Below, one piece after another: positions 972 to 59,044 of a DNA stretch of 64,000 nucleotides. The position numbers and the translations under genes were made by a program. Within the stretch, counting starts at the first letter, position 1. Each line of letters starts with the position of its first letter. The stretch lies in the IMG/VR virus record IMGVR_UViG_3300002460_000027; one strand, 5' to 3'. The notes beneath the pieces were generated by a model. It was not told where the DNA came from, ran no database searches, and was given only the letters and a program-made list of their open reading frames with translations. This DNA is from a virus.

Positions 972-1903
972 TCCCGTTCAACCAGCCCCCGGAGGGTCGC
1001 GTGTGCGAGGTCCGGGGAGATACGGTCTGGAAACCCGACCTCCGCCCCGTCATGCCGGTTGACCACCAGCCAGCACTCGGGGAGGACCGCTGTCAGCCCG
1101 ATCAGCGTGAGGTTCATCATGTCTGAGACCGTGGCAGAGATGGTGTGCGACCAGCCTTCCTTGGCGCGGGCACGACGATCACCAGACAGCCTTCTAAGTC
1201 GCCCGAACCCGGAACGAGCCAGACCCGTGTCAGCGCAAGACTGCTGCGCGGCCATTTTGGCGGCCACGAACCGTGGCTTAGCGCGGAGATAGGCCTTACC
1301 AAAGTCCTCAAGCTCTCGCCGGGTATAGCCAAGTTTCTCTACCCCCTTGGCATTGAGGATACCACGGTGGTCCTCCGCATACAAGAGGGCGTAGCGGGCC
1401 GTCTTGGCCATGTGACGCTGGGCGTCGGTCACGGGCGGCTCGACGTTGAACATGCGGCAGGCCGTCAGCGTGTGGACGTCGGCCCCGGAGGCGAAGGCGT
1501 CCAAGTCTTCCTGGTCTTGGCAGTAGGTGGCGGCGAGTCGGGCTTCGACGGCTTGCCAGTCGAACGTGAGCCAGTAGGTTCCGGGATCTGGCACGAGCAC
1601 GCCCCGAACATCTCGCGGGCACCAGGTATCCTCCACGTGCGGCAACTGGCACACGGACAGATCATGCCGTGGGAAGTTGGTAAGGGGGGGACTAGTAGTA
1701 CTCCACCGTCCTGAAGCCTGGGCAGTAGGGAGCATGAGTGGGTAGATACGGTCCCGTTCGGCCAGATCAGCAACATAGCGTCGTATCCCCTCTAGTTCTG
1801 TGTGGGCCAGCCTAGCGTCCAGCACGTCCGAGATGACCCCATGCCGCCGGAGGGCCTCAAGGGTGTCGGCCTCAACGCTGTGGGGCGGGCGGCGCTTGGG
1901 CAT
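890..1903 (-). CDS. polA: DNA polymerase family A, polymerase (thumb/palm/fingers) part
   Basis: GRWSTTSPPLTNFP, motif A DWQAVEARLAA, DVHTLTA, motif B RHMAKTARYALLY, motif C NRHDG; start could be 1903 or 1969. Confidence 0.9.
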   Translation of the reverse strand: MPKRRPPHSVEADTLEALRRHGVISDVLDARLAHTELEGIRRYVADLAERDRIYPLMLPTAQASGRWSTTSPPLTNFPRHDLSVCQLPHVEDTWCPRDVRGVLVPDPGTYWLTFDWQAVEARLAATYCQDQEDLDAFASGADVHTLTACRMFNVEPPVTDAQRHMAKTARYALLYAEDHRGILNAKGVEKLGYTRRELEDFGKAYLRAKPRFVAAKMAAQQSCADTGLARSGFGRLRRLSGDRRARAKEGWSHTISATVSDMMNLTLIGLTAVLPECWLVVNRHDGAEVGFPDRISPDLAHATLRGLVEREWTFWGHPFTCPATWGQVLPDGGHVWL

Positions 1904-2048
1904 GGACGGTCTGTTGGGTACAGTTCCAGCATGTAGCAGCGGTTTCTGGCTTGATGAGTACCCACCCATATGGCCACGAGTTCCACTCCCGGCCGAGCGG
2001 TATCACGTGCCCACAAGCATACACGTTCCCGGCCAGGGTCACCGCCAT
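1872..2048 (-). CDS. 58-aa Cys/His micro-protein (CGHV...CWNC), divergent family member lying between the two polymerase ORFs
   Basis: MAVTLAGNVYACGHVIPLGREWNSWPYGWVLIKPETAATCWNCTQQTVHAQAPPAPQR; ATG overlaps the upstream TGA. Confidence 0.6.
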   Translation of the reverse strand: MAVTLAGNVYACGHVIPLGREWNSWPYGWVLIKPETAATCWNCTQQTVHAQAPPAPQR

Positions 2049-3412
2049 CGTTCTACCCCATACCCCTGCGCGGCCACCTGCGGACCAGAGCGGAGGTTCA
2101 ACGGCCAGCCGGCCGCTGCTTGAGCTTCCAGTGCAATCGTATGCTGGGCATCCCGCAAAGAGAGCACAGCCCGTTTGGCTCGTAGGGCATCCACTCGTAT
2201 GCCCACCCTGCGCGCCATAGCAACGATACGCAGAAGCGGCAGTAGCGCGTGTCTGTAGACCCACTCGCTGGCTGGGTCTCGGGCCAGCTCGTCTCGGAGT
2301 CCCTGCCAGACGTCCCACGTTCCGAGCGCGTCCCCTGCCGCGTACTCGACCGGGTTGGCTTGGGAGAGGTGCTTCCAGCGGTTCGTACGGGCATAGAGGC
2401 TCCCCAGGAAGTCCAGGTCGTGAGCCAGTTCCGAATAGAGCGCGTGATGGGCATACATGGTGTCCTCGTGTGTCACCGGAACGGTGCCGAAGAACTCCTC
2501 TAGGCGGTCAATGTCCGCGTCGGCTTGGTGGAAGATAACGTGCGGCATCTGGGCTGAGGTGCCAAGCATCCTTGGCAGAGGCTCGTCCGCGTCCACTACC
2601 CAGACTTTCTCCCCGTCCGACGCAGACCATCTGACGAGGTGCCGTTCCTGCCCCTGCTCCCAGAACTCCGTGTCAAACGCAAACTCAGCCGGCCACGCCG
2701 CCATCGCCCGCCGGATCGGCGGCATCGGCTGGGGCCAGCGCCCCGCCAGCAGCTCGCCGAGCTTCTGCCAGTCCCGAAGCGCGGCTGGCTTGAGCCACGG
2801 GGCCTCGTAGATCGCGGCTGGGTGAAGGGTAGCGTACACCACCATCCCGCCTCCCGGCGGCGTCCATACGTGCGAGGCCGTCTGACGCTTGAAGGGGGAC
2901 CACGGTAGCACCCACCCGCGCCACCCGGCTATCTTTCGTGAGATGCCGTAGGGGGGCGGGTCGCCGCCGTCTTCCCCTGTGGTGGCCCAGAGTGCGTAAC
3001 CGCCGAGGGCGACGACAACCATACACGCCGCCGGGGGTCGAAAGTATGCCTGCTGGCAGTGCTGGATCGCGTTTCTGACCTCCACTCGTTCCAATGTAGG
3101 TAGCTGGTTAGAGCCACCAACGCGGCATCGGACGACATTGGCGAGGGAAACGTCTTCTCGCACCAAGCCAGCAAGCGGGAGGTACGTTCGTCCCAGGTCA
3201 TAGCCGGAGTCTCCGATGAAGGGGGCGGGCTCGCCCGGCTCCCACTTCTTGAGCCGGCCCGCCCGGCCGACGAGCCGCTCCCCACGTTCTTCGTGCTCAC
3301 CGGGGGCCTGCCCTAAGACCAAGACGGGGACGGGCCGGTACTCGTCCGGCACCATCCACCGCCCTTTGGTCTCGAAGGGGCAGCCGCGACATCCGGGGCC
3401 CTTTGGGATCAC
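2039..3412 (-). CDS. family-4 uracil-DNA-glycosylase-like domain fused to PolA 3'-5' exonuclease (N-terminal half of DNA polymerase)
   Basis: CRGCP, VLGQAPG, PFIGDSG, NVVRCR, ALG, TLHPAA (UDG4); FDTE, FHQADAD, EDTM, YAAGDA (Exo I-III); PLNLRSGPQV (thumb start). GTG start at 3412 inferred. Confidence 0.85.
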   Translation of the reverse strand: MIPKGPGCRGCPFETKGRWMVPDEYRPVPVLVLGQAPGEHEERGERLVGRAGRLKKWEPGEPAPFIGDSGYDLGRTYLPLAGLVREDVSLANVVRCRVGGSNQLPTLERVEVRNAIQHCQQAYFRPPAACMVVVALGGYALWATTGEDGGDPPPYGISRKIAGWRGWVLPWSPFKRQTASHVWTPPGGGMVVYATLHPAAIYEAPWLKPAALRDWQKLGELLAGRWPQPMPPIRRAMAAWPAEFAFDTEFWEQGQERHLVRWSASDGEKVWVVDADEPLPRMLGTSAQMPHVIFHQADADIDRLEEFFGTVPVTHEDTMYAHHALYSELAHDLDFLGSLYARTNRWKHLSQANPVEYAAGDALGTWDVWQGLRDELARDPASEWVYRHALLPLLRIVAMARRVGIRVDALRAKRAVLSLRDAQHTIALEAQAAAGWPLNLRSGPQVAAQGYGVERWR

Positions 3413-3417
3413 CCAAC

Positions 3418-3909
3418 CTAGTCCCGCACAGGACTCAGCGCCACGACGAAGTTGCTGGGCTCTGGGAACCGCTCGTTGCCTTCCAGCCGCCGGATACGGA
3501 GCCGGACGGGGTAGTCCCGCACGTACCCAGCCACCTCGGCCAGGGTGTCCGGGTCGCGGCCGTTCGCCGTCTTGAAGGCGGTCACGGCCTGTGTCCACCG
3601 CTGGGAACTGGCATCCGGCCGCCCGGAGTCGTTCGTCACCCGGTCGGGGGACATCGTGAGCCCGATCCCACCCTTCTCGCCCGTGACCTCGTGCTGCACC
3701 TGCGCGAAGAAGCGGTACTCAATCCGGCCGCGCTCGCCCCCGCCGTTGTCCTGCACCTTCGTCCGGTCGGAGACTCGCGCCGTCAGCGTCAGGGCGGGCA
3801 GCGTCCGATACGTCCCCTCGGTGAGAAGCAGCGCAGTCTGCGTCTCCTTGTCCTGCTCGGCCTGCTCCTGCGTGTACGCTCGTGCCAACAGTTCGTCCAT
3901 GCCTTCCAT
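3418..3909 (-). CDS. hypothetical protein, possible ssDNA-binding protein by position
   Basis: Follows the Sak4-like and exonuclease genes; no diagnostic motif. Confidence 0.45.
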   Translation of the reverse strand: MEGMDELLARAYTQEQAEQDKETQTALLLTEGTYRTLPALTLTARVSDRTKVQDNGGGERGRIEYRFFAQVQHEVTGEKGGIGLTMSPDRVTNDSGRPDASSQRWTQAVTAFKTANGRDPDTLAEVAGYVRDYPVRLRIRRLEGNERFPEPSNFVVALSPVRD

Positions 3910-3910
3910 T

Positions 3911-4078
3911 TTATCTTCCCCCTTGGCTCAAACAGGGCCTGTGATGAATTATCGGCAGACTGCACCTGCAACATCCCGTTTTGGTTAGTGGCATTACTAC
4001 GTGAGTGGGCCAAATCCCTACAGCGTTCCAGACACACACATGCCCGCAACTCTCGACATACGTTTGCAGCGTTCTCAT
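3911..4078 (-). CDS. 55-aa CGHVC...CCRC micro-protein
   Basis: MRTLQTYVESCGHVCVWNAVGIWPTHVVMPLTKTGCCRCSLPIIHHRPCLSQGGR; ATGA overlap with upstream stop. Confidence 0.7.
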   Translation of the reverse strand: MRTLQTYVESCGHVCVWNAVGIWPTHVVMPLTKTGCCRCSLPIIHHRPCLSQGGR

Positions 4079-4839
4079 GGTTTCAGCAACGGTTCCAGCT
4101 TGCGGAAGTCCGGCGGCTCCAGCTTGTTCGGGAGTCGCGCCGCCATCTCGGGCGGGAGCTTGACCCCGACCCCCCAGACCTTCCCCGCCGGCCGGATCTG
4201 CCAGCGTGCGGTGACCTTCCCCTGCGGGGTGGGCGGGTCCACTTCCGCGTACAGCACGACCGAGAACTCGCCCACGATCCGTGACGCCATCATGCCCGGC
4301 AGGTCGGGGAAGATGTGGCTCGGCGCGTTCTTGGACTTGTCGGTCGGGTCGTCCTTCGTGCGGCCTTCCCATGCCGTCATTACAACATACGGCACCTGGG
4401 ATTGCAAGACTTTGTTGAGGTACGCCCCGAAGTCCCGGTGGGCCTTCCCGTAGGCTTGCCCGACCGTCTCCTCCCGCTGCCCAAGGTCGAGCCACGCCCG
4501 CTCGAAGTACCACGTGTAGAGTTTGTGGACGCCGTCCCCCACGAACGTCATGCACTCGCCGTGCTTGCCGGCCAAGAGTTCCGTCGTGAGCGTTTCGACC
4601 TCGGTCACGACGGCGTGTGGGGAGAGTTTCGCGGGGTCGGCCACCTCCCAGATCCAGGCGGTGTGGTCCGGATTGTCACGCGGGATCGTCTCGTAGCCCT
4701 TCTCGCCCGGGTAGGAGACATGCTGCCGATGGGCCGGCCACGTGAAGCACGCCGTTGTCTTGAGCGTGTTGGGGGGGCCGGAGATGAGCACCCGGCGACC
4801 GTAGTGGGGCGTGGCGTCTTGCCAGCGTTTAAAGGGCAT
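4075..4839 (-). CDS. Sak4/AAA_24-like phage NTP-binding recombination protein
   Basis: Walker-A-like ISGPPNTLKTT, Walker-B-like FVGDG, VVMTAWE, PDLPG; next to the exonuclease. Confidence 0.7.
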   Translation of the reverse strand: MPFKRWQDATPHYGRRVLISGPPNTLKTTACFTWPAHRQHVSYPGEKGYETIPRDNPDHTAWIWEVADPAKLSPHAVVTEVETLTTELLAGKHGECMTFVGDGVHKLYTWYFERAWLDLGQREETVGQAYGKAHRDFGAYLNKVLQSQVPYVVMTAWEGRTKDDPTDKSKNAPSHIFPDLPGMMASRIVGEFSVVLYAEVDPPTPQGKVTARWQIRPAGKVWGVGVKLPPEMAARLPNKLEPPDFRKLEPLLKP

Positions 4840-5080
4840 GAAGGTTTCCTTGTCGAATGTAATACGAGGTTAGCCCGTAGTATGTGTTACTGCTTGTTTC
4901 TCTCAGCCCCACTGGGGCAAACTTTATTACAGCCCCAAGCGGTCCGTCGTAACCCTCACACGCCTCTAGAAATGCTGCTAGCAGTGTGGTAGCGCAGACT
5001 TGTTTGTTTTCGATTCCACCAGAACTTACGATCCACCCTTCCGCGCACATTGGTTCAGTTAGGGCGTCTCTCAAGGGCAT
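4829..5080 (-). CDS. hypothetical protein
   Basis: Open frame overlapping neighbours at both ends; lower GC. Confidence 0.45.
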   Translation of the reverse strand: MPLRDALTEPMCAEGWIVSSGGIENKQVCATTLLAAFLEACEGYDGPLGAVIKFAPVGLRETSSNTYYGLTSYYIRQGNLHAL

Positions 5081-5277
5081 CAGGTGTCCTTTCGAGAGTT
5101 ACACGATTGACAACCCCAACCATGAGGACGCGCCTGTGGCGTACACCGGCAACACCCCTCTTTGAGTATAACAATCACCTTACCATTTAGGTTTGTGAGT
5201 GGTGGCATCAACACATGCCCACACTCAGGCACCTCAACAAACCATGTTCCATCAAACCTTCCGTTCCAGCCGGCCAT
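5080..5277 (-). CDS. 65-aa CGHV...CCRC micro-protein
   Basis: MAGWNGRFDGTWFVEVPECGHVLMPPLTNLNGKVIVILKEGCCRCTPQARPHGWGCQSCNSRKDT. Confidence 0.65.
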   Translation of the reverse strand: MAGWNGRFDGTWFVEVPECGHVLMPPLTNLNGKVIVILKEGCCRCTPQARPHGWGCQSCNSRKDT

Positions 5278-6046
5278 AAGCACTCTCCATCTGGTCTGGG
5301 TCCAAGTGTAGCACATGACAAGCTGGGATATACTCACACGGGCCGTACTTGCCGTAACAGGCCGTGAAGTTCGGGGTGGAGTCTCGACACCACGGCTCGT
5401 CTTCATCAAACGTTTTGTCCATGTCAAACCATGCCTGCTCAGCCCCTTTTAGCCAAAACGTGAGCCGGGCGGGGGTCACCTCGACAGGGTGGAGGAACGT
5501 CTGCACACGCGGGGCCAGTTGGATCATGTGAACCCGGGCCCACGAGACAGGCTCCCGCAACACCTCACCGACCTCCCACGCATAATGGAAGAGCTGGTGA
5601 CTGGTGAAGTATTCGGTCAGTTTGTCCTCACCGGCCCGCATCGTGACCTTCGTGTCCGTCACCACGAGCCCTTGACCGGGGATGCGCTGCACGAGGTCCG
5701 GGCGGGCGGTGCTCGGCAGGGGCTCATCCACCATCAACACCTCGCCGTGGTCTCGCAGGTTGTCCCCGCGTCCGGCCTCGTACCCCTTCTGGGCCAGCTT
5801 GACCAGCGCCTCCCGCGTCCAGGTGTCGTTGTCCCGGAAGCCCTCCAGGATGACGCGGCGCAGCGTGTCCTCGGGAACTGGGGTTGGGTGGCCCCGATAG
5901 TGTTCGGAGAGCGCGTCCCCGATGGCGGACCCCAAGAGCATGTTCGGGGTCCATACCCTACCCAGCGGCTCCCAAGAACGCTTTAGAGTCGCGTACATAG
6001 GACACCGGAGCCAGTCAGCGGTACGGCTTGGGCTGTAGGATGGCAT
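5252..6046 (-). CDS. PD-(D/E)xK exonuclease, Cas4/RecB-like with probable Fe-S cluster
   Basis: SPSRTADWLRCP, RPDLV, VVTDTK, QLFHY, C-terminal C...C.Y...C. Confidence 0.8.
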   Translation of the reverse strand: MPSYSPSRTADWLRCPMYATLKRSWEPLGRVWTPNMLLGSAIGDALSEHYRGHPTPVPEDTLRRVILEGFRDNDTWTREALVKLAQKGYEAGRGDNLRDHGEVLMVDEPLPSTARPDLVQRIPGQGLVVTDTKVTMRAGEDKLTEYFTSHQLFHYAWEVGEVLREPVSWARVHMIQLAPRVQTFLHPVEVTPARLTFWLKGAEQAWFDMDKTFDEDEPWCRDSTPNFTACYGKYGPCEYIPACHVLHLDPDQMESAYGRLERKV

Positions 6047-6051
6047 TCTAG

Positions 6052-6258
6052 TCAGCGCTTACCGCCTAGGGGAGGGCTTCCTTTGGGCCGGAGACGTCTG
6101 CCGGCCTCGCGCCGAGCGGCCCCCACACCACTCACGCACCGTGAGCAGGTGTATATAGCTGGTTTCTCAGGCAAATACGGCCATCGAAGCTCTCCACATC
6201 TGGCGCAGGAGACCTCGTATGTCTGATGATGCTTCAAGTGGGTGCAGATGGTGGCCAT
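6052..6258 (-). CDS. small zinc-finger protein (CARC...CSRC)
   Basis: Two CxxC pairs; upstream SD-like GGAG. Confidence 0.55.
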   Translation of the reverse strand: MATICTHLKHHQTYEVSCARCGELRWPYLPEKPAIYTCSRCVSGVGAARREAGRRLRPKGSPPLGGKR

Positions 6259-6269
6259 GCTCGTGTCTC

Positions 6270-6443
6270 CTAGCCTCTTCTACGACAGGCACAGAGGGCA
6301 CTATAGTCGTCTGTGATTCCATTCCCCGATGTTTCTCCCCGGCACCGGCAACACATACTTATTGTCCTTGGGTAGACCCACGCAGCCTCTGTCCTCTCAA
6401 CACACACATGCGGGCATTTTGTGTGGTAGTACACACTAAGCAA
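6270..6443 (-). CDS. about 57-aa CPHVC...CCRC micro-protein
   Basis: LSVYYHTKCPHVCVERTEAAWVYPRTISMCCRCRGETSG...LCAC; TTG start inferred from overlap with upstream TAG, alternative start 6488. Confidence 0.65.
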   Translation of the reverse strand: MLSVYYHTKCPHVCVERTEAAWVYPRTISMCCRCRGETSGNGITDDYSALCACRRRG

Positions 6444-6666
6444 AACTCTGCCGTGTGGTGACACGCCGCCGTTTGAGTTCATCGACACTCACCACTCTAC
6501 ACAGATTGCCGTTCTTGTCAAGCACCCTGACGGGCCCGTACGGTCGCTCGGGTGGCTCGGGGAGTCGGACTTCGTGGAGGGCTGACAACCCGACCAGCGA
6601 GTGTTCAAGCATCCGAGAGTCTACCTTCTCGGTCTCAGGCTTCTTGTGATGCGAGCGTCTTGGCAT
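6436..6666 (-). CDS. hypothetical protein (MPRRSHHKK...)
   Basis: GGGAGG SD upstream of ATG 6666. Confidence 0.55.
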   Translation of the reverse strand: MPRRSHHKKPETEKVDSRMLEHSLVGLSALHEVRLPEPPERPYGPVRVLDKNGNLCRVVSVDELKRRRVTTRQSFA

Positions 6667-6688
6667 ACGCGCCTCCCTTTGGTAGAAT
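6660..6688 (+). promoter_or_regulatory. sigma70-type promoter with extended -10; probably leaderless for the helicase
   Basis: TTGGCA(6660-65)-17 bp-TAGAAT(6683-88) with TGG before -10; GTG start 7 nt downstream. Confidence 0.6.
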
Positions 6689-6695
6689 GTGAATC

Positions 6696-7481
6696 GTGCC
6701 CCTCGACCTCTCGCGCCTGCTGACCGAAACCCCGCAAGAACCACACTGGGTGGCGAACGGGATGCTGCCGCGTGGTACGCTCGTGGTGCTGGCCGGCGAC
6801 GCAGGAGTCGGCAAGAGTTTCCTGAGCTACACGCTGGCGTTCTCGGTGGCGGCCGGGCTGCCGTTCCTCGGGCGACGGGTGGAGCAGACCCGGGTGCTCT
6901 ACGTGGATGAGGAAAACTCCCTGCCAGACTTGCAAGCCTACCTGCGCTGGGTCTGGCTGGGGGTGGGGAGGCCGGACATCACGCGGCTGTCCCAGTTTCT
7001 CCACGTGGAGCACTTCACCCTTGGCCGTCAGTGGCAAGATCAGCTCACCCGCGAGTGTCTGGCGTTCCGGCCCGGGCTCATCATCGTAGACACGGCCACG
7101 TCCGCCCTCAAGATCCAGGACGAGAACGACAACGCCGAGGCCGCCCGCGTCATCTCGGGGTTGCACCAAGCCCGGGCGGCCAGCCACAACGACGCCACGG
7201 TGCTCGTGCTCAAGCACGCCAAGGTGTTGGAAGACACCCAGCACCGCCGGACGGTTCGCGGGGCAAAAGTCTGGCTTGGGCAGGCCGATGCCGTCTGGTT
7301 CCACCACGCCAAGTCCGGGCGACCACGGAAGGACGGCCTCCGACCGACCGTGCTGGAACCCGACAAAGTGCGGGCCTGGGGGCTCCGAGAGGGGGTCTCG
7401 ATTACCCCCGAGTGGACGACTGAGGAACCCCGTGGGATTAAACTCATTGGGCAGTCGCTCATTTCCCAACCCGCCAAGTAG
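6696..7481 (+). CDS. RecA-fold AAA_25/RepA-type helicase
   Basis: LVVLAGDAGVGKSFL Walker A, VLYVDEEN, LIIVDT Walker B, LKHAK, RGAKVW. Confidence 0.8.
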   Translation: MPLDLSRLLTETPQEPHWVANGMLPRGTLVVLAGDAGVGKSFLSYTLAFSVAAGLPFLGRRVEQTRVLYVDEENSLPDLQAYLRWVWLGVGRPDITRLSQFLHVEHFTLGRQWQDQLTRECLAFRPGLIIVDTATSALKIQDENDNAEAARVISGLHQARAASHNDATVLVLKHAKVLEDTQHRRTVRGAKVWLGQADAVWFHHAKSGRPRKDGLRPTVLEPDKVRAWGLREGVSITPEWTTEEPRGIKLIGQSLISQPAK

Positions 7482-7549
7482 TTGAAAAGGCGTCGATCTG
7501 ACATGCCATTAATTGGCTACCCTTATACAGAAGGGGAAGCCCTCACGAG

Positions 7550-7891
7550 GTGGCCATGAGACGTTGCCTTTGCTCCCACAAGATGCTGAAGACGAAGTGC
7601 CGAATCTGCCTACAAAAGAGGCAATCCACTCGCCAATACTGGAAGAGAGCGGCCAAGTTGAAGCGACTCGGTTTGACCCCGGCAGATTATGAGATTTTCC
7701 TAGAAGTCCAAGGCGGTCTGTGTGCATTTTGCGGGCGCGTGCCAACACACCGAAGGCTGGCGGTTGACCACAATCACAAGACAGGGAAGGTTCGTGGTCT
7801 TCTCTGCTATCGTTGCAACCGTTTCCTTGTTGGCTTTCATACCATCTCAACAGCCAAGCGATTGTTGGCATATCTACTTACCAGAGATTGA
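7550..7891 (+). CDS. endonuclease VII-like HNH nuclease
   Basis: QGGLCAFCG...LAVDHNHKTGKVRGLLCYRCN. Confidence 0.85.
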   Translation: MAMRRCLCSHKMLKTKCRICLQKRQSTRQYWKRAAKLKRLGLTPADYEIFLEVQGGLCAFCGRVPTHRRLAVDHNHKTGKVRGLLCYRCNRFLVGFHTISTAKRLLAYLLTRD

Positions 7892-8098
7892 AGCATCCTC
7901 CCCCCAATCCCAGCCCCGAACGAAGGTGCCGGTGGCGTAGGGGCAGTAGTTTCCATCTAGTTTCCTACCATCGCAGCGACAGCAGTCATACCCATCAACT
8001 CGGGTGACTATGGCCTGATCCACTTTTTTTGCATGCTCGTCTCGTCTATGTGGACACACATGCCCGCAGTTCCCTACCAGGAGCCAGATTCTAAGCAC
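7874..8098 (-). CDS. 74-aa CGHVC...CCRC micro-protein
   Basis: MLRIWLLVGNCGHVCPH...DGYDCCRCDGRKLDGNYC; GTG overlaps upstream TAG. Confidence 0.7.
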   Translation of the reverse strand: MLRIWLLVGNCGHVCPHRRDEHAKKVDQAIVTRVDGYDCCRCDGRKLDGNYCPYATGTFVRGWDWGEDASISGK

Positions 8099-9230
8099 GC
8101 CGCACCACCTGAGCCCCAGCCGGGACGGGCTCCCCAGCTCCGACCACCCACAGGTCAGCCTCAGCCCCCACCGGCCATCCGTCAGCCGTGCCCCCGTCTG
8201 TCAGCCACACTGTTTGCTTGTCAGGATCGCGGTGCTCGCCAGCCGCCCGGATGAGGGTGCCGCCGCCCGCCGACCGGCACATGGCCAGGACTGCCCCCAC
8301 GTCCGAGGCGTCCACGGGCTCCCGACACAGGTGGTCGAACACCACCACGTCCGAGCTGGCTAGCTCAGGGGTCGAGCACACCGCCGCTAAGAGTTGCCCC
8401 AACAGCTCGTCCCCAATGCTTCCCGAGGCGTCCAGCATGAACCGGGCTGCGCGGGCTTCCCCACGGGCCGAGCCCGGCAGGAGGTCCGGGTTGACGCGGT
8501 GTGCCCGCCGCCAAGACCGCAACCGCTCCTCTCTGGCCACGACCCGCGTCACCAACCAGTCCAGCACCTCTTGTATCCACGGGGGGCATGCGGGGAGCGT
8601 AGGAGTTGGCCGCATCCCGTTCCCGTTTGGCCCAGCGTCTCCCAGCACCGCCCGCCCCACCGCCGAGGCTTTCATCCGGCTGGCCAACGTGGAATCGGCC
8701 AAGGAATGGCCAGCAGCCCCGCATGTATGCCCTTGGAACGGTTTGGCTTCCTTCACAATGATGTCATAGAGGCGCTCAGACGGCATTAGCGTCAGAGGGC
8801 GTTTGAGACTCTTGGAAAGACGTTCGTAGGTTACAGACTCCCAGTCACATTCCCGATCTACTACTTCCCAGTCAGACTCTTTGAGCCCATGAATATTGGC
8901 GTCGGTCGCAATGTTCCACGCCAAGACTGGATTTTGGCCACTGGGGTCTGTCAGCACGACGTTTCGATCACCGTGCCGAGCCCAGCATCCGTGGGCCACG
9001 TGGCTGGCTTCGTGGCGCAGGATTTCTACACGAGCGGCGTGCGGCGCTCGCTCCCAGAGCTTCCCGAGCAGGAGCGTCAGCCGCCCATCCTCCAACAGAC
9101 TCCCGACTGTCGGCACCTCAGGCGCGTGGCGTACCTCGTCGACGAGAGCGAGGAAGTTTGTCACGTCGGGCGGCCACGGAGAGGCATCGGGTAGAGCAAC
9201 TGTCCAGTCTACAACGGCAGCAGGGTTCAC
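8091..9230 (-). CDS. HEXXH metallopeptidase-like domain + vWA domain protein (DUF2201-type)
   Basis: ILRHEASHVAHG, WNIATDANI, MLDASGSI (MIDAS), GGGT, WLTDG; SD GGGAGG before GTG. Confidence 0.8.
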   Translation of the reverse strand: MNPAAVVDWTVALPDASPWPPDVTNFLALVDEVRHAPEVPTVGSLLEDGRLTLLLGKLWERAPHAARVEILRHEASHVAHGCWARHGDRNVVLTDPSGQNPVLAWNIATDANIHGLKESDWEVVDRECDWESVTYERLSKSLKRPLTLMPSERLYDIIVKEAKPFQGHTCGAAGHSLADSTLASRMKASAVGRAVLGDAGPNGNGMRPTPTLPACPPWIQEVLDWLVTRVVAREERLRSWRRAHRVNPDLLPGSARGEARAARFMLDASGSIGDELLGQLLAAVCSTPELASSDVVVFDHLCREPVDASDVGAVLAMCRSAGGGTLIRAAGEHRDPDKQTVWLTDGGTADGWPVGAEADLWVVGAGEPVPAGAQVVRRA

Positions 9231-9336
9231 TGTGTACCTCCCTAAAGACCGCTAAGTCGTGAATGCCAGGGTATACACACACGTGTCCACACACCGAGAC
9301 AAACAGGTAATCTGTTATCGGCTTTTCTTTAGCCAC
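9118..9336 (-). CDS. 72-aa CGHVC...CCRC micro-protein
   Basis: MAKEKPITDYLFVSVCGHVCVYPG...EPCCRCRLDSC; overlaps the start of the vWA gene. Confidence 0.65.
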   Translation of the reverse strand: MAKEKPITDYLFVSVCGHVCVYPGIHDLAVFREVHSEPCCRCRLDSCSTRCLSVAARRDKLPRSRRRGTPRA

Positions 9337-9506
9337 GTCTGGACCCCATGCTCAGACACTCTCTGTCGTGGGTGGGAAGACTAGGATCAGTATCACACCG
9401 GCAACACTCAACATACTTTCCGTTCCCGGCCAAACTGTATTGGCCTACCCAGACACAGATATGTCCACACCGCCTTACTTGGACCCAGAGCTTTTCTTTA
9501 GCCACG
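9321..9506. repeat. 17-bp direct repeat GCTTTTCTTTAGCCACG at 9321-9337 and 9490-9506
   Basis: Seen directly; each copy encodes the MAKEK start of a micro-protein. Confidence 0.85.
9329..9505 (-). CDS. 58-aa CGHIC...CCRC micro-protein (not in the supplied ORF track)
   Basis: Hand translation from GTG 9505: MAKEKLWVQVRRCGHICVWVGQYSLAGNGKYVECCRCDTDPSLPTHDRECLSMGSRRG. Confidence 0.7.
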   Translation of the reverse strand: MAKEKLWVQVRRCGHICVWVGQYSLAGNGKYVECCRCDTDPSLPTHDRECLSMGSRRG

Positions 9507-10775: not shown

Positions 10776-10818
10776 CGCTCCCCCTGTGTGGTATACTACA
10801 CTTGTCGGAGTCTGACCG

Positions 10819-11094: not shown

Positions 11095-11103
11095 TCGGTC
11101 AGA

Positions 11104-11872: not shown

Positions 11873-11874
11873 GG

Positions 11875-46932: not shown

Positions 46933-47654
46933 GTGGTCCCCCTTTCAAGAGAATTATACACAGGTCCCCCCACCTTGGCCATACGGATGTCATAGGCGCG
47001 GCACTCCACCAACCCGCCCCGGTTCGTCGCCTCGTCTACTTGGTGGAGATCCCACCGGGGCGTCCGGCCCGGACCCGCAATGGACCCCGCCGAGTTCTGG
47101 TGGTGTGGTGTTCCGCGTCGGCACCACTCACACGCCGCCATCACCGCCCGCACGAAGTCTAGCCCCGTCTGGTCGTCCACCGACCAGCGGTAGGTGCCCG
47201 GGAGGTGGTAGGGCTCTCTCAGCGCCCGGTTGGCTCGCATCCAGACCGTCACGTGTTCCCGCTTGATGCCGGTCTCGGCCTCGTCTGCCTCCATCAGCGT
47301 CTCCCGGTCGAAGACCTCTGTGTCCAGCCCGTCCATGCTGAGACAGGTTCCGTAGTAGCCGTGCCGCCATCCAGCCAAGACCTGCCGTCCGACCTCTGCG
47401 TCCCAGAGGGGGCAGTCCGCTGTCACCCGGATGAACCGAGTCACGTCCGGGTGCCGGTTAGCCACCCGCACGAACCGGGTCAGCACGTCCCACTCGGGCT
47501 CCAGTTCGGGCCATGCGACGACAAGCGGGTATCCGAGCTGGGCCACCCGCTTCACGACATGAGCCAGCATTGGCTCACCGTCGATGTCCTTCATCACCTT
47601 TCCCGGGAGCCGCGTCCCCCCGTGGCGTGCTTGGATGACGGCTAGTGTTTGCAT
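46929..47654 (-). CDS. SpsF/PseF-type acylneuraminate cytidylyltransferase
   Basis: VIQARHGGTRLPGKV, DVLTRF, IRVTADCPL, GLDTEVF, REHVT, RWSVDD. Confidence 0.85.
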   Translation of the reverse strand: MQTLAVIQARHGGTRLPGKVMKDIDGEPMLAHVVKRVAQLGYPLVVAWPELEPEWDVLTRFVRVANRHPDVTRFIRVTADCPLWDAEVGRQVLAGWRHGYYGTCLSMDGLDTEVFDRETLMEADEAETGIKREHVTVWMRANRALREPYHLPGTYRWSVDDQTGLDFVRAVMAACEWCRRGTPHHQNSAGSIAGPGRTPRWDLHQVDEATNRGGLVECRAYDIRMAKVGGPVYNSLERGTT

Positions 47655-47809
47655 AGGGATTGTAGACTGTGCGTCCTGTTAGTCGCCTCTGAGCATCGGC
47701 AACACTTACCCCCAACTTGGTTATAGAGATGGCCTTGCCCAGAAGAGGGCCGCCACACACAAACATGTGGGCACTCAGTCCACACAGCAATCTCTAGTTT
47801 GGACTTCAC
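47642..47809 (-). CDS. 55-aa CPHVC...CCRC micro-protein (not in the supplied ORF track)
   Basis: Hand translation from GTG 47809: MKSKLEIAVWTECPHVCVWRPSSGQGHLYNQVGGKCCRCSEATNRTHSLQSLCKH; GTGA coupling upstream. Confidence 0.7.
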   Translation of the reverse strand: MKSKLEIAVWTECPHVCVWRPSSGQGHLYNQVGGKCCRCSEATNRTHSLQSLCKH

Positions 47810-52384: not shown

Positions 52385-53398
52385 TCACAGCCACACATGC
52401 CCCCCATCCGGCAGCACCTGCCCCCACGTTGCCGGGCAGGTGAACGGATGCCCCCAAAACGTCCACTCCCGTTCAACCAGCCCCCGGAGGGTCGCGTGTG
52501 CGAGGTCCGGGGAGATACGGTCTGGAAACCCGACCTCCGCCCCGTCATGCCGGTTGACCACCAGCCAGCACTCGGGGAGGACCGCTGTCAGCCCGATCAG
52601 CGTGAGGTTCATCATGTCTGAGACCGTGGCAGAGATGGTGTGCGACCAGCCTTCCTTGGCGCGGGCACGACGATCACCAGACAGCCTTCTAAGTCGCCCG
52701 AACCCGGAACGAGCCAGACCCGTGTCAGCGCAAGACTGCTGCGCGGCCATTTTGGCGGCCACGAACCGTGGCTTAGCGCGGAGATAGGCCTTACCAAAGT
52801 CCTCAAGCTCTCGCCGGGTATAGCCAAGTTTCTCTACCCCCTTGGCATTGAGGATACCACGGTGGTCCTCCGCATACAAGAGGGCGTAGCGGGCCGTCTT
52901 GGCCATGTGACGCTGGGCGTCGGTCACGGGCGGCTCGACGTTGAACATGCGGCAGGCCGTCAGCGTGTGGACGTCGGCCCCGGAGGCGAAGGCGTCCAAG
53001 TCTTCCTGGTCTTGGCAGTAGGTGGCGGCGAGTCGGGCTTCGACGGCTTGCCAGTCGAACGTGAGCCAGTAGGTTCCGGGATCTGGCACGAGCACGCCCC
53101 GAACATCTCGCGGGCACCAGGTATCCTCCACGTGCGGCAACTGGCACACGGACAGATCATGCCGTGGGAAGTTGGTAAGGGGGGGACTAGTAGTACTCCA
53201 CCGTCCTGAAGCCTGGGCAGTAGGGAGCATGAGTGGGTAGATACGGTCCCGTTCGGCCAGATCAGCAACATAGCGTCGTATCCCCTCTAGTTCTGTGTGG
53301 GCCAGCCTAGCGTCCAGCACGTCCGAGATGACCCCATGCCGCCGGAGGGCCTCAAGGGTGTCGGCCTCAACGCTGTGGGGCGGGCGGCGCTTGGGCAT
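52385..53398 (-). CDS. polA: DNA polymerase family A, polymerase part (repeat copy)
   Basis: Same as 890-1903. Confidence 0.9.
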   Translation of the reverse strand: MPKRRPPHSVEADTLEALRRHGVISDVLDARLAHTELEGIRRYVADLAERDRIYPLMLPTAQASGRWSTTSPPLTNFPRHDLSVCQLPHVEDTWCPRDVRGVLVPDPGTYWLTFDWQAVEARLAATYCQDQEDLDAFASGADVHTLTACRMFNVEPPVTDAQRHMAKTARYALLYAEDHRGILNAKGVEKLGYTRRELEDFGKAYLRAKPRFVAAKMAAQQSCADTGLARSGFGRLRRLSGDRRARAKEGWSHTISATVSDMMNLTLIGLTAVLPECWLVVNRHDGAEVGFPDRISPDLAHATLRGLVEREWTFWGHPFTCPATWGQVLPDGGHVWL

Positions 53399-53533
53399 GG
53401 ACGGTCTGTTGGGTACAGTTCCAGCATGTAGCAGCGGTTTCTGGCTTGATGAGTACCCACCCATATGGCCACGAGTTCCACTCCCGGCCGAGCGGTATCA
53501 CGTGCCCACAAGCATACACGTTCCCGGCCAGGG

Positions 53534-54907
53534 TCACCGCCATCGTTCTACCCCATACCCCTGCGCGGCCACCTGCGGACCAGAGCGGAGGTTCAACGGC
53601 CAGCCGGCCGCTGCTTGAGCTTCCAGTGCAATCGTATGCTGGGCATCCCGCAAAGAGAGCACAGCCCGTTTGGCTCGTAGGGCATCCACTCGTATGCCCA
53701 CCCTGCGCGCCATAGCAACGATACGCAGAAGCGGCAGTAGCGCGTGTCTGTAGACCCACTCGCTGGCTGGGTCTCGGGCCAGCTCGTCTCGGAGTCCCTG
53801 CCAGACGTCCCACGTTCCGAGCGCGTCCCCTGCCGCGTACTCGACCGGGTTGGCTTGGGAGAGGTGCTTCCAGCGGTTCGTACGGGCATAGAGGCTCCCC
53901 AGGAAGTCCAGGTCGTGAGCCAGTTCCGAATAGAGCGCGTGATGGGCATACATGGTGTCCTCGTGTGTCACCGGAACGGTGCCGAAGAACTCCTCTAGGC
54001 GGTCAATGTCCGCGTCGGCTTGGTGGAAGATAACGTGCGGCATCTGGGCTGAGGTGCCAAGCATCCTTGGCAGAGGCTCGTCCGCGTCCACTACCCAGAC
54101 TTTCTCCCCGTCCGACGCAGACCATCTGACGAGGTGCCGTTCCTGCCCCTGCTCCCAGAACTCCGTGTCAAACGCAAACTCAGCCGGCCACGCCGCCATC
54201 GCCCGCCGGATCGGCGGCATCGGCTGGGGCCAGCGCCCCGCCAGCAGCTCGCCGAGCTTCTGCCAGTCCCGAAGCGCGGCTGGCTTGAGCCACGGGGCCT
54301 CGTAGATCGCGGCTGGGTGAAGGGTAGCGTACACCACCATCCCGCCTCCCGGCGGCGTCCATACGTGCGAGGCCGTCTGACGCTTGAAGGGGGACCACGG
54401 TAGCACCCACCCGCGCCACCCGGCTATCTTTCGTGAGATGCCGTAGGGGGGCGGGTCGCCGCCGTCTTCCCCTGTGGTGGCCCAGAGTGCGTAACCGCCG
54501 AGGGCGACGACAACCATACACGCCGCCGGGGGTCGAAAGTATGCCTGCTGGCAGTGCTGGATCGCGTTTCTGACCTCCACTCGTTCCAATGTAGGTAGCT
54601 GGTTAGAGCCACCAACGCGGCATCGGACGACATTGGCGAGGGAAACGTCTTCTCGCACCAAGCCAGCAAGCGGGAGGTACGTTCGTCCCAGGTCATAGCC
54701 GGAGTCTCCGATGAAGGGGGCGGGCTCGCCCGGCTCCCACTTCTTGAGCCGGCCCGCCCGGCCGACGAGCCGCTCCCCACGTTCTTCGTGCTCACCGGGG
54801 GCCTGCCCTAAGACCAAGACGGGGACGGGCCGGTACTCGTCCGGCACCATCCACCGCCCTTTGGTCTCGAAGGGGCAGCCGCGACATCCGGGGCCCTTTG
54901 GGATCAC
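53534..54907 (-). CDS. UDG-like + 3'-5' exonuclease half of DNA polymerase (repeat copy)
   Basis: Same as 2039-3412. Confidence 0.85.
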   Translation of the reverse strand: MIPKGPGCRGCPFETKGRWMVPDEYRPVPVLVLGQAPGEHEERGERLVGRAGRLKKWEPGEPAPFIGDSGYDLGRTYLPLAGLVREDVSLANVVRCRVGGSNQLPTLERVEVRNAIQHCQQAYFRPPAACMVVVALGGYALWATTGEDGGDPPPYGISRKIAGWRGWVLPWSPFKRQTASHVWTPPGGGMVVYATLHPAAIYEAPWLKPAALRDWQKLGELLAGRWPQPMPPIRRAMAAWPAEFAFDTEFWEQGQERHLVRWSASDGEKVWVVDADEPLPRMLGTSAQMPHVIFHQADADIDRLEEFFGTVPVTHEDTMYAHHALYSELAHDLDFLGSLYARTNRWKHLSQANPVEYAAGDALGTWDVWQGLRDELARDPASEWVYRHALLPLLRIVAMARRVGIRVDALRAKRAVLSLRDAQHTIALEAQAAAGWPLNLRSGPQVAAQGYGVERWR

Positions 54908-54912
54908 CCAAC

Positions 54913-55404
54913 CTAGTCCCGCACAGGACTCAGCGCCACGACGAAGTTGCTGGGCTCTGGGAACCGCTCGTTGCCTTCCAGCCGCCGGATACGGAGCCGG
55001 ACGGGGTAGTCCCGCACGTACCCAGCCACCTCGGCCAGGGTGTCCGGGTCGCGGCCGTTCGCCGTCTTGAAGGCGGTCACGGCCTGTGTCCACCGCTGGG
55101 AACTGGCATCCGGCCGCCCGGAGTCGTTCGTCACCCGGTCGGGGGACATCGTGAGCCCGATCCCACCCTTCTCGCCCGTGACCTCGTGCTGCACCTGCGC
55201 GAAGAAGCGGTACTCAATCCGGCCGCGCTCGCCCCCGCCGTTGTCCTGCACCTTCGTCCGGTCGGAGACTCGCGCCGTCAGCGTCAGGGCGGGCAGCGTC
55301 CGATACGTCCCCTCGGTGAGAAGCAGCGCAGTCTGCGTCTCCTTGTCCTGCTCGGCCTGCTCCTGCGTGTACGCTCGTGCCAACAGTTCGTCCATGCCTT
55401 CCAT
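54913..55404 (-). CDS. hypothetical, possible SSB (repeat copy)
   Basis: Same as 3418-3909. Confidence 0.45.
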   Translation of the reverse strand: MEGMDELLARAYTQEQAEQDKETQTALLLTEGTYRTLPALTLTARVSDRTKVQDNGGGERGRIEYRFFAQVQHEVTGEKGGIGLTMSPDRVTNDSGRPDASSQRWTQAVTAFKTANGRDPDTLAEVAGYVRDYPVRLRIRRLEGNERFPEPSNFVVALSPVRD

Positions 55405-55569
55405 TTTATCTTCCCCCTTGGCTCAAACAGGGCCTGTGATGAATTATCGGCAGACTGCACCTGCAACATCCCGTTTTGGTTAGTGGCATTACTACGTGAG
55501 TGGGCCAAATCCCTACAGCGTTCCAGACACACACATGCCCGCAACTCTCGACATACGTTTGCAGCGTTC

Positions 55570-56334
55570 TCATGGTTTCAGCAACGGTTCCAGCTTGCGG
55601 AAGTCCGGCGGCTCCAGCTTGTTCGGGAGTCGCGCCGCCATCTCGGGCGGGAGCTTGACCCCGACCCCCCAGACCTTCCCCGCCGGCCGGATCTGCCAGC
55701 GTGCGGTGACCTTCCCCTGCGGGGTGGGCGGGTCCACTTCCGCGTACAGCACGACCGAGAACTCGCCCACGATCCGTGACGCCATCATGCCCGGCAGGTC
55801 GGGGAAGATGTGGCTCGGCGCGTTCTTGGACTTGTCGGTCGGGTCGTCCTTCGTGCGGCCTTCCCATGCCGTCATTACAACATACGGCACCTGGGATTGC
55901 AAGACTTTGTTGAGGTACGCCCCGAAGTCCCGGTGGGCCTTCCCGTAGGCTTGCCCGACCGTCTCCTCCCGCTGCCCAAGGTCGAGCCACGCCCGCTCGA
56001 AGTACCACGTGTAGAGTTTGTGGACGCCGTCCCCCACGAACGTCATGCACTCGCCGTGCTTGCCGGCCAAGAGTTCCGTCGTGAGCGTTTCGACCTCGGT
56101 CACGACGGCGTGTGGGGAGAGTTTCGCGGGGTCGGCCACCTCCCAGATCCAGGCGGTGTGGTCCGGATTGTCACGCGGGATCGTCTCGTAGCCCTTCTCG
56201 CCCGGGTAGGAGACATGCTGCCGATGGGCCGGCCACGTGAAGCACGCCGTTGTCTTGAGCGTGTTGGGGGGGCCGGAGATGAGCACCCGGCGACCGTAGT
56301 GGGGCGTGGCGTCTTGCCAGCGTTTAAAGGGCAT
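55570..56334 (-). CDS. Sak4/AAA_24-like ATPase (repeat copy)
   Basis: Same as 4075-4839. Confidence 0.7.
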   Translation of the reverse strand: MPFKRWQDATPHYGRRVLISGPPNTLKTTACFTWPAHRQHVSYPGEKGYETIPRDNPDHTAWIWEVADPAKLSPHAVVTEVETLTTELLAGKHGECMTFVGDGVHKLYTWYFERAWLDLGQREETVGQAYGKAHRDFGAYLNKVLQSQVPYVVMTAWEGRTKDDPTDKSKNAPSHIFPDLPGMMASRIVGEFSVVLYAEVDPPTPQGKVTARWQIRPAGKVWGVGVKLPPEMAARLPNKLEPPDFRKLEPLLKP

Positions 56335-56746
56335 GAAGGTTTCCTTGTCGAATGTAATACGAGGTTAGCCCGTAGTATGTGTTACTGCTTGTTTCTCTCA
56401 GCCCCACTGGGGCAAACTTTATTACAGCCCCAAGCGGTCCGTCGTAACCCTCACACGCCTCTAGAAATGCTGCTAGCAGTGTGGTAGCGCAGACTTGTTT
56501 GTTTTCGATTCCACCAGAACTTACGATCCACCCTTCCGCGCACATTGGTTCAGTTAGGGCGTCTCTCAAGGGCATCAGGTGTCCTTTCGAGAGTTACACG
56601 ATTGACAACCCCAACCATGAGGACGCGCCTGTGGCGTACACCGGCAACACCCCTCTTTGAGTATAACAATCACCTTACCATTTAGGTTTGTGAGTGGTGG
56701 CATCAACACATGCCCACACTCAGGCACCTCAACAAACCATGTTCCA

Positions 56747-57541
56747 TCAAACCTTCCGTTCCAGCCGGCCATAAGCACTCTCCATCTGGTCTGGGTCCAA
56801 GTGTAGCACATGACAAGCTGGGATATACTCACACGGGCCGTACTTGCCGTAACAGGCCGTGAAGTTCGGGGTGGAGTCTCGACACCACGGCTCGTCTTCA
56901 TCAAACGTTTTGTCCATGTCAAACCATGCCTGCTCAGCCCCTTTTAGCCAAAACGTGAGCCGGGCGGGGGTCACCTCGACAGGGTGGAGGAACGTCTGCA
57001 CACGCGGGGCCAGTTGGATCATGTGAACCCGGGCCCACGAGACAGGCTCCCGCAACACCTCACCGACCTCCCACGCATAATGGAAGAGCTGGTGACTGGT
57101 GAAGTATTCGGTCAGTTTGTCCTCACCGGCCCGCATCGTGACCTTCGTGTCCGTCACCACGAGCCCTTGACCGGGGATGCGCTGCACGAGGTCCGGGCGG
57201 GCGGTGCTCGGCAGGGGCTCATCCACCATCAACACCTCGCCGTGGTCTCGCAGGTTGTCCCCGCGTCCGGCCTCGTACCCCTTCTGGGCCAGCTTGACCA
57301 GCGCCTCCCGCGTCCAGGTGTCGTTGTCCCGGAAGCCCTCCAGGATGACGCGGCGCAGCGTGTCCTCGGGAACTGGGGTTGGGTGGCCCCGATAGTGTTC
57401 GGAGAGCGCGTCCCCGATGGCGGACCCCAAGAGCATGTTCGGGGTCCATACCCTACCCAGCGGCTCCCAAGAACGCTTTAGAGTCGCGTACATAGGACAC
57501 CGGAGCCAGTCAGCGGTACGGCTTGGGCTGTAGGATGGCAT
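56747..57541 (-). CDS. Cas4/RecB-like exonuclease (repeat copy)
   Basis: Same as 5252-6046. Confidence 0.8.
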   Translation of the reverse strand: MPSYSPSRTADWLRCPMYATLKRSWEPLGRVWTPNMLLGSAIGDALSEHYRGHPTPVPEDTLRRVILEGFRDNDTWTREALVKLAQKGYEAGRGDNLRDHGEVLMVDEPLPSTARPDLVQRIPGQGLVVTDTKVTMRAGEDKLTEYFTSHQLFHYAWEVGEVLREPVSWARVHMIQLAPRVQTFLHPVEVTPARLTFWLKGAEQAWFDMDKTFDEDEPWCRDSTPNFTACYGKYGPCEYIPACHVLHLDPDQMESAYGRLERKV

Positions 57542-58190
57542 TCTAGTCAGCGCTTACCGCCTAGGGGAGGGCTTCCTTTGGGCCGGAGACGTCTGCCGGC
57601 CTCGCGCCGAGCGGCCCCCACACCACTCACGCACCGTGAGCAGGTGTATATAGCTGGTTTCTCAGGCAAATACGGCCATCGAAGCTCTCCACATCTGGCG
57701 CAGGAGACCTCGTATGTCTGATGATGCTTCAAGTGGGTGCAGATGGTGGCCATGCTCGTGTCTCCTAGCCTCTTCTACGACAGGCACAGAGGGCACTATA
57801 GTCGTCTGTGATTCCATTCCCCGATGTTTCTCCCCGGCACCGGCAACACATACTTATTGTCCTTGGGTAGACCCACGCAGCCTCTGTCCTCTCAACACAC
57901 ACATGCGGGCATTTTGTGTGGTAGTACACACTAAGCAAAACTCTGCCGTGTGGTGACACGCCGCCGTTTGAGTTCATCGACACTCACCACTCTACACAGA
58001 TTGCCGTTCTTGTCAAGCACCCTGACGGGCCCGTACGGTCGCTCGGGTGGCTCGGGGAGTCGGACTTCGTGGAGGGCTGACAACCCGACCAGCGAGTGTT
58101 CAAGCATCCGAGAGTCTACCTTCTCGGTCTCAGGCTTCTTGTGATGCGAGCGTCTTGGCATACGCGCCTCCCTTTGGTAGAATGTGAATC

Positions 58191-58976
58191 GTGCCCCTCG
58201 ACCTCTCGCGCCTGCTGACCGAAACCCCGCAAGAACCACACTGGGTGGCGAACGGGATGCTGCCGCGTGGTACGCTCGTGGTGCTGGCCGGCGACGCAGG
58301 AGTCGGCAAGAGTTTCCTGAGCTACACGCTGGCGTTCTCGGTGGCGGCCGGGCTGCCGTTCCTCGGGCGACGGGTGGAGCAGACCCGGGTGCTCTACGTG
58401 GATGAGGAAAACTCCCTGCCAGACTTGCAAGCCTACCTGCGCTGGGTCTGGCTGGGGGTGGGGAGGCCGGACATCACGCGGCTGTCCCAGTTTCTCCACG
58501 TGGAGCACTTCACCCTTGGCCGTCAGTGGCAAGATCAGCTCACCCGCGAGTGTCTGGCGTTCCGGCCCGGGCTCATCATCGTAGACACGGCCACGTCCGC
58601 CCTCAAGATCCAGGACGAGAACGACAACGCCGAGGCCGCCCGCGTCATCTCGGGGTTGCACCAAGCCCGGGCGGCCAGCCACAACGACGCCACGGTGCTC
58701 GTGCTCAAGCACGCCAAGGTGTTGGAAGACACCCAGCACCGCCGGACGGTTCGCGGGGCAAAAGTCTGGCTTGGGCAGGCCGATGCCGTCTGGTTCCACC
58801 ACGCCAAGTCCGGGCGACCACGGAAGGACGGCCTCCGACCGACCGTGCTGGAACCCGACAAAGTGCGGGCCTGGGGGCTCCGAGAGGGGGTCTCGATTAC
58901 CCCCGAGTGGACGACTGAGGAACCCCGTGGGATTAAACTCATTGGGCAGTCGCTCATTTCCCAACCCGCCAAGTAG
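58191..58976 (+). CDS. AAA_25/RepA-type helicase (repeat copy)
   Basis: Same as 6696-7481. Confidence 0.8.
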   Translation: MPLDLSRLLTETPQEPHWVANGMLPRGTLVVLAGDAGVGKSFLSYTLAFSVAAGLPFLGRRVEQTRVLYVDEENSLPDLQAYLRWVWLGVGRPDITRLSQFLHVEHFTLGRQWQDQLTRECLAFRPGLIIVDTATSALKIQDENDNAEAARVISGLHQARAASHNDATVLVLKHAKVLEDTQHRRTVRGAKVWLGQADAVWFHHAKSGRPRKDGLRPTVLEPDKVRAWGLREGVSITPEWTTEEPRGIKLIGQSLISQPAK

Positions 58977-59044
58977 TTGAAAAGGCGTCGATCTGACATG
59001 CCATTAATTGGCTACCCTTATACAGAAGGGGAAGCCCTCACGAG

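Follow-up and report, generated by a model that had tools for sequence, protein, structure and literature searches.

Eight micro-genes in a circular phage genome

The 64,000-nucleotide stretch of the IMG/VR virus record IMGVR_UViG_3300002460_000027, referred to here as the window, carries on its minus strand a dispersed family of micro-genes (m1-m8) whose predicted products share a motif of cysteine and histidine residues. The family is very probably real and protein-coding, and is built round a probable zinc site. Positions 1-12505 of the window are identical to positions 51496-64000, so the window is a circular phage genome of 51,495 bp read 1.24 times. Because the window wraps this circle, m1-m7 occur in it twice (the second set at +51,495, 53367..61000, minus strand), and the genome holds eight distinct micro-genes, not fifteen. 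The genome, with a GC (guanine plus cytosine) content of ~0.63, belongs to an uncultivated tailed phage whose portal is of the SU10 type and whose major capsid protein is of the Phage_capsid_4 family. Identical or near-identical contigs are present in groundwater and soil/sediment metagenomes from many studies. Population variation was sought in contigs from four public runs, which are identical to the window bar one base and give no signal; six contigs that carry m3 are likewise 99.9-100% identical.

The micro-genes and a direct repeat among them are listed below, with bit scores against a profile hidden Markov model (HMM) of the family where these are informative; lengths are in amino acids (aa).

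1872..2048, minus strand: m1, 58 aa, the most diverged copy (CGHVI ... CWNC; 46 bits), between the uracil-DNA glycosylase (UDG)/3'-5' exonuclease half and the PolA half of a split polymerase
3911..4078, minus strand: m2, 55 aa, between a Sak4-like gene (AAA_24) and an SSB-like gene, its start overlapping the Sak4 stop
5080..5277, minus strand: m3, 65 aa (CGHVL ... CCRC), directly downstream of a PD-(D/E)XK exonuclease gene; in the protein collection
6270..6443, minus strand: m4, 57 aa (CPHVC ... CCRC), between a 102-aa open reading frame (ORF) and a 68-aa CxxC...CxxC ORF, upstream of the exonuclease gene
7874..8098, minus strand: m5, 74 aa, directly after a vWA-like gene, with an 8-nt overlap; in the protein collection
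9118..9336, minus strand: m6, 72 aa, at the junction of a MoxR-type AAA+ gene and the vWA-like gene, with positional orthologs in three related loci (L097, L098, L101)
9329..9505, minus strand: m7, 58 aa, tandem partner of m6, with its start inside the 3' end of the AAA+ gene; in the protein collection
9321..9337 and 9490-9506: the two copies, 169 bp apart, of a 17-bp perfect direct repeat
47642..47809, minus strand: m8, 55 aa (CPHVC ... CCRC; 61 bits), in a sugar-nucleotide operon

Each of these eight minus-strand ORFs of 55-74 aa translates as an earlier note on this DNA had claimed, and the shared motif is C[GP]H[VI](C)-x16-23-C[CW][RN]C, with the variants of m1 and m3 as listed. The genome contains this motif 8 times, none of 200 shuffled versions contains it, and all CCRC tetrapeptides in the six-frame translation fall within these ORFs. 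The starts (ATG in three, GTG in four and TTG in one) are preceded by sequences resembling a Shine-Dalgarno (SD) site or by ATGA, TGATG or GTGA overlaps. The overlaps with neighbouring starts and stops described in the earlier note were found again: ATGA joins Sak4 to m2, TGATG couples m3 to the following ORF, GTGA couples m8 to an upstream 55-aa ORF, and the C-terminal tail of m6 overlaps, in another frame, the first 113 nt of the vWA-like gene. There is also a 13-nt overlap between m8 and a cytidylyltransferase start. The minus-strand arm of early, replication and sugar genes, which by our own reading of the gene map makes up ~36% of the genome, carries all 8 copies. Within 9.1 kb, promoter-like sites (2) and terminator-like sites (6) are at the level of shuffled sequence, and none flanks a member.

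Protein-level conservation and range of the family

Because protein databases did not reveal the family, its relatives were approached through neighbouring genes, with homologs of the Sak4-like and vWA-like proteins leading to contigs whose six-frame translations were then scanned with a member-derived HMM. In the six-frame check, members score at least 45 bits and all other ORFs at most 13 bits; members from more diverged lineages, found later, score ~20-35 bits. One iteration of the HMM gave 49 hits, corresponding to ~37 distinct sequences, at 12 metagenomic loci: the window, L006/L007, L044, L045, L047, L048 and L097-L101. There are eight members in the window, eight in L098, seven in L007, six in L097, three in L101 and one each in L044, L045, L047 and L048, and the sets in L006, L099 and L100 repeat parts of others. 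Member-bearing phages have a Sak4 at least ~70% identical, or a vWA-like protein at least 64% identical, to that of the window. Across ~300 kb of relatives with a Sak4 identity of at most 54% there are zero members, and the corresponding junctions are occupied by unrelated, cysteine-free small ORFs. Judged from the sequences compared, the family is confined to one phage clade.

Within the same module there are also small ORFs with a different motif, CxxC ... CxxC, at 6052-6258 (minus strand) of the window, at 18-221 of L045 and at 480-641 of L047, all of which are negative by the family HMM.

Searches further afield returned little beyond the family itself. Most copies being skipped by gene callers, the family profile recovered just the phage's own three called members from 1.84 billion protein representatives, as did a word-indexed search of 5.8 billion proteins, apart from one tandem-repeat protein judged spurious; called members in relatives are too short to reach significance. 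A single strict scan of IMG/VR DNA for both motifs gave 33 stretches, none of them a member by HMM (all <11 bits), and tblastn of GenBank phages with m7 as sole query found no match. The Sak4-like and vWA-like queries likewise found no resembling relative in IMG/VR contigs, GenBank phages or GTDB genome contigs. The family, unrecognised in the earlier note, has no significant match in Pfam (none of the eight at E up to 10; best among 16 members E 0.037), PHROGs (best E 0.13 across the eight), NCBIfam (best E 0.006, one member only), PADLOC (no match) or a profile search of the PDB (best E 1). A feature search of the ESM Atlas gave unnamed clusters at 0.90 and zinc-finger families at 0.85, the latter at chance level, and the literature searched nowhere describes the motif or the family. 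As a sequence family it is undescribed.

Conservation within the family resides in the protein. Selection at this level, which had been proposed for the eight copies, is borne out by wobble and CGN/AGR variation at the conserved residues of 36 distinct members, where the first Cys is encoded by TGT (23) or TGC (13), the His by CAT (24) or CAC (12), the first Cys of the C-x2-C pair by TGC (17) or TGT (19), and the second by TGT (22) or TGC (14). Gly is encoded by four codons and Arg by six, including AGG and AGA. The invariant columns, in the alignment of the eight and in the larger alignment, are one Cys, the His two residues on, and the C-x2-C pair. The distance from C-x-H to C-x2-C varies over ~18-29 residues, yet the frame between them stays open in all ~37 members. 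The GC content of the members, as the earlier note had estimated, is below that of the surroundings, at 0.51-0.56 in seven and 0.62 in m1, compared with ~0.63 for the genome.

These observations bear directly on whether the copies are genes at all, or a repeated RNA or DNA element that reads as Cys and His by chance. GC content that is flat across codon positions, the omission of most copies by gene callers and the partial similarity of motif 1 among copies at the nucleotide level would each be expected of such an element. However, variation at synonymous sites, including CGN/AGR, and frames that remain open despite variable motif spacing would not. Additionally, there is no excess folding energy (mean z -0.49 for 13 members, mononucleotide shuffles) and no relevant Rfam match at E up to 1. 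Wobble variation, the Rfam negative and the absent folding signal count against the element, and this explanation is essentially excluded.

Copy-number turnover and recombination at the junctions

Presence and absence of members at the same junctions varies among relatives, with copy numbers of 0 to 3. The junctions compared are as follows.

PD-(D/E)XK to Sak4: in the window, one member alongside an unrelated 83-aa ORF; in L007, three members; in L044, L045, L047 and L048, one member each
Sak4 to SSB-like: m2 in the window; empty in L006; an unrelated 63-aa ORF in L044; a member in L098
Polymerase split: m1 in the window; in L006, a vestige retaining the C-G-H knuckle and the strand but not the loop or the second knuckle
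AAA+ to vWA: at least one member in 4 of 4 lineages, with a tail that runs, in another frame, over the conserved 5' end of the vWA-like gene

Similar differences are seen elsewhere, as the position matching m4 holds two members in L007, and that of m5 holds 1-3 members in relatives. The earlier note had placed the micro-genes between normally adjacent partners, a description that is accurate for the polymerase halves and for Sak4 and the SSB-like gene, which lie 6 nt apart in L006. It does not apply to the AAA+/vWA pair, where a member is present in every lineage examined. In the window (890-1969 and 2039-3598, minus strand), in L006 (2133-4772) and in another relative, L009 (6844-9263), two genes encode the family A polymerase, one for a UDG plus 3'-5' exonuclease half and the other for a polymerase half. 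The window and L006 have both halves in one frame, separated by 138 nt and 15 nt, respectively, and L009 has them in different frames. Since the two halves overlap by 4 nt in L009, the split is ancestral and was not caused by the micro-gene.

The clearest record of turnover is found in L044, which differs from L007 by a single clean indel of 347 nt whose ends lie at equivalent codons of the L007 paralogs mA and mC. The resulting L044 chimera has the 5' codons of mA joined in register to the body of mC, which makes the event an unequal crossover, in register, of tandem paralogs. The closest matches of members are mostly paralogs inside the same genome, while m3 and L007 mB are reciprocal best matches at 43% identity. 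In both m6 and m7 the 17-bp repeat spans the GTG start and the first codons (V-A-K-E-K), and the two also share homologous C-L-S tails, which fits tandem duplication.

Rates of change differ sharply between the members and the core genes around them. When L006 is compared with L007, each of the 18 differences found in Sak4, the SSB-like gene and UDG/exonuclease is synonymous, while mC has 7 nonsynonymous and 0 synonymous differences, with the ligands untouched. Between L007 and L044, the ratio of nonsynonymous to synonymous differences per site (pN/pS) is 1.04 for mC and 0.02 for Sak4, at equal pS. The orthologs of L047 (1330-1497) and L048 (38-211) have a pN/pS of 0.27, indicating purifying selection on the protein. 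These orthologs differ at ~14% of bases, compared with 0.4% in the adjoining Sak4, and the contrast in pS (0.32 in the micro-gene, 0.006 in Sak4) indicates a recombination boundary, a sharp mosaic, at the Sak4 start. More broadly, positional orthologs of the micro-genes are 42-43% identical, compared with 60-83% for most neighbours, though the flanking AAA_25 gene is just 48% identical.

Turnover of this kind could also be produced by selfish units of ~150-200 bp that persist at gene boundaries through the phage's recombination genes and encode a peptide without a role for the phage. Such a cassette would be in keeping with the variable presence at identical junctions of close relatives, the atypical composition of the units, the 17-bp direct repeat bracketing m7, the decayed vestige at the L006 polymerase junction, and the location of copies at non-adjacent junctions, one of them ~45 kb off. 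However, no inverted repeats were found flanking any member, there is no repeated target duplication apart from the single 17-bp case, no associated nuclease or transposase, and copies within a genome are never near-identical, with the best paralog pairs below ~46% identity. The "mobile mini-cassette" that the earlier note had offered is thus unsupported in its strict sense, for want of terminal inverted repeats, convincing target duplications and near-identical copies. Furthermore, the one resolved indel came about by ordinary unequal crossover of two paralogs, conservation of the metal ligands is at the level of the protein, with purifying selection in the L047/L048 pair, and the family was not found beyond one clade. 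A selfish origin is therefore unlikely.

The overlaps with neighbouring starts and stops, and the extension of the m6 group ~100 nt into the vWA-like gene in all lineages, raise another explanation, in which translation of the micro-ORF would act in cis as a coupling or leader peptide that tunes downstream initiation, possibly by Cys, zinc or redox. Conservation, however, is seen in the C/H/C/C amino acids, with free wobble, and neither in nucleotides nor in length. The same neighbour pairs are coupled directly in relatives without a member, a single junction may hold 0 to 3 copies, and tandem runs of two or three are hard to reconcile with such a role. The "Cys/Zn-sensing coupling peptides" suggested previously are thus a distinctly poor prospect.

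Several neighbouring genes were recorded alongside the junctions. The slot before Sak4, in which relatives have an extra micro-gene, holds in the window an 83-aa ORF (4829-5080, minus strand) with no family match. Upstream of m8, an unannotated 55-aa ORF without the Cys motif (47806-47973, minus strand) is GTGA-coupled between a PseH-like acetyltransferase and m8. Additionally, m5 is the last minus-strand gene ahead of convergent genes for endonuclease VII and AAA_25. The former is a free-standing recombination endonuclease VII gene (PF02945; 7550-7891, plus strand) between m5 and AAA_25, and no gene of this family is called at the matching position in L007, L097, L098 or L101. This nuclease gene, possibly a mobile one, appears to have been inserted separately in a single lineage. 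The vWA-like gene (8091-9230, minus strand) and its MoxR-type AAA_5 ATPase partner (9475-10506, minus strand) encode a pair in which the "vWA" protein has an HExxH motif; its homologs match DUF2201_N, a putative metallopeptidase domain, and weakly the VWA-like DUF2201. The variable N-terminal 18 residues of this protein are overprinted by the C-C-R-C region of m6.

The candidate zinc site, possible functions and known systems

The members probably bind zinc, and the spacing of the four invariant residues in sequence alignments would suit a two-knuckle zinc ribbon. Members that follow the vWA gene form a subgroup with no ligands beyond the core four (C-x-H ... C-P-x-C), pointing to a single obligatory metal site. 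Four more Cys/His residues are present in most members, and in the main group these extra residues could make up a second metal site. Models from AlphaFold2 (AF2) place C-G-H at the turn of an N-terminal hairpin and a strand before the second knuckle, and leave the second half unresolved.

The best explanation of the family is a clade-specific, birth-and-death set of small, probable zinc-knuckle proteins, most likely directed at the host or its defences. Each member comprises ~55-75 residues on a single invariant pair of putative zinc knuckles, C-x-H at the predicted N-terminal hairpin turn and C-x2-C. The micro-genes would be transcribed together with the minus-strand early, replication and sugar operons and presumably translated through coupling to neighbouring genes. 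Gain and loss proceed through tandem duplication and in-register unequal recombination of paralogs, and sequence outside the metal ligands changes far faster than the flanking core genes. The products would act in trans as small zinc-stabilised binders of host or host-defence proteins, forming a diversified accessory repertoire. The host- or defence-directed part is suggested by a combination that typically marks phage accessory proteins of this kind: invariant ligands with hypervariable loops, a pN/pS of ~1 or above in one lineage, numerous paralogs, and rapid gain and loss; the confinement of all copies to the early arm is a further point in its favour. Small phage proteins are the source of most of the anti-defence and host-takeover functions that have been found. 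Among the three functions proposed in the earlier note, the "diversified zinc-scaffold effector library" would appear to fit best.

A number of observations weigh against this explanation. GC content by codon position is 0.54/0.53/0.54 in the members of the window, compared with 0.69/0.50/0.77 in neighbours, and 0.55/0.53/0.58 family-wide, compared with 0.65/0.47/0.75, a flat profile with no bias at the third position. This profile is probably why gene callers skip most members: only 3 of the 8 are in the protein collection, and those of L007 sit in stretches without any called gene. Confidence in the AF2 models is low, with a predicted local distance difference test (pLDDT) score of 63 and 66 for alignments of 16 and 20 rows. 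A Foldseek search of the PDB with the low-confidence model gave best rows at E 0.8-5 and a template modelling (TM) score of ~0.3, and an exhaustive VIA structure search gave nothing at Z of at least 2. The top Foldseek rows, which are not significant, are chains of 46-69 residues from ribosome entries, which we take to be small ribosomal proteins such as bL31. A pN/pS of ~1 is equally expected under relaxed constraint. Finally, no run recorded as RNA contains the phage, and no link of the family to a host target or defence system emerged (PADLOC gave none). Taken as a whole, function included, the explanation of host- or defence-directed zinc-knuckle proteins is held tentatively, at somewhat less than an even chance.

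A more specific form of the same explanation is doubtful, though it deserves mention: the members may constitute a phage-encoded, self-diversifying repertoire of zinc-scaffold binders, in which an invariant C-x-H/C-x2-C core carries hypervariable loops under positive selection, in-register unequal recombination of tandem and dispersed paralogs makes new specificities, and different members neutralise different host defence or housekeeping proteins.

The location of the genes would also fit accessory zinc-finger subunits of the phage replication, recombination or MoxR-vWA machinery, which would bind nucleic acid or the neighbouring enzyme. The micro-genes are interleaved with those for the PolA halves, UDG/exonuclease, Sak4, the SSB-like protein, PD-(D/E)XK, AAA_25 and AAA_5/vWA, the AAA+/vWA junction has a member in all four lineages, and the C-terminal tails are basic. 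Small zinc ribbons, moreover, often bind nucleic acids. However, the basic tails largely overlie the SD sequence or 5' coding region of the next gene, so that their sequence is constrained by the other frame. Further, there are 0 to 3 copies per junction, the neighbours function without members in relatives, the members evolve much faster than most of their supposed partners, and one copy lies in the sugar operon. Subunits of this kind are improbable, and host- or defence-directed zinc-knuckle proteins are preferred.

Whatever the members do, the family illustrates how readily small phage proteins escape gene callers. It also offers a compact natural scaffold, with four fixed ligands, variable loops, dozens of natural variants and visible gain and loss of copies. 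If members do bind host or defence proteins, they would provide ready-made inhibitors from a clade of uncultivated groundwater phages, as well as a model for the diversification of a micro-gene family inside a conserved replication module.

Comparison with known systems places the family near, but not within, several of them. Like two-knuckle zinc ribbons such as bL31, the members are predicted to have a beta-strand leading into a short first knuckle and a second knuckle, C-x2-C, ~20 residues on. The zinc form of bL31 has the ligands C-x-C ... C-x2-C, whereas the second ligand of the family is His. The likeness is one of layout and not of membership, as the L31 profile is unmatched in Pfam and NCBIfam and only the weak structural rows given above were obtained.

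Morons, reportedly described by Hendrix, Juhala and colleagues in 2000, are said to be accessory genes inserted between phage core genes. The micro-genes resemble them in lying between genes that are adjacent in relatives and in having a composition unlike that of their flanks. Unlike morons, they have no promoter or terminator of their own, are coupled into the surrounding operons, and are multi-copy paralogs. The ultra-small mycobacteriophage mobile elements (MPME) that Sampson and colleagues reportedly described in 2009 are said to have inverted-repeat ends and near-identical copies. The micro-genes are likewise tiny, with a single short ORF per unit, and occupy given sites in some related phages but not in others. 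However, they share neither of those two features, and their copy number shifts by homologous unequal crossover.

The family belongs, rather, with the expanded families of tiny, Cys-rich, probably zinc-binding early proteins of phages. Particular to it are the C-x-H/C-x2-C ligand set, the dispersal of its members into replication-module junctions with out-of-frame overlaps, and the unequal crossover that is visible among its paralogs.

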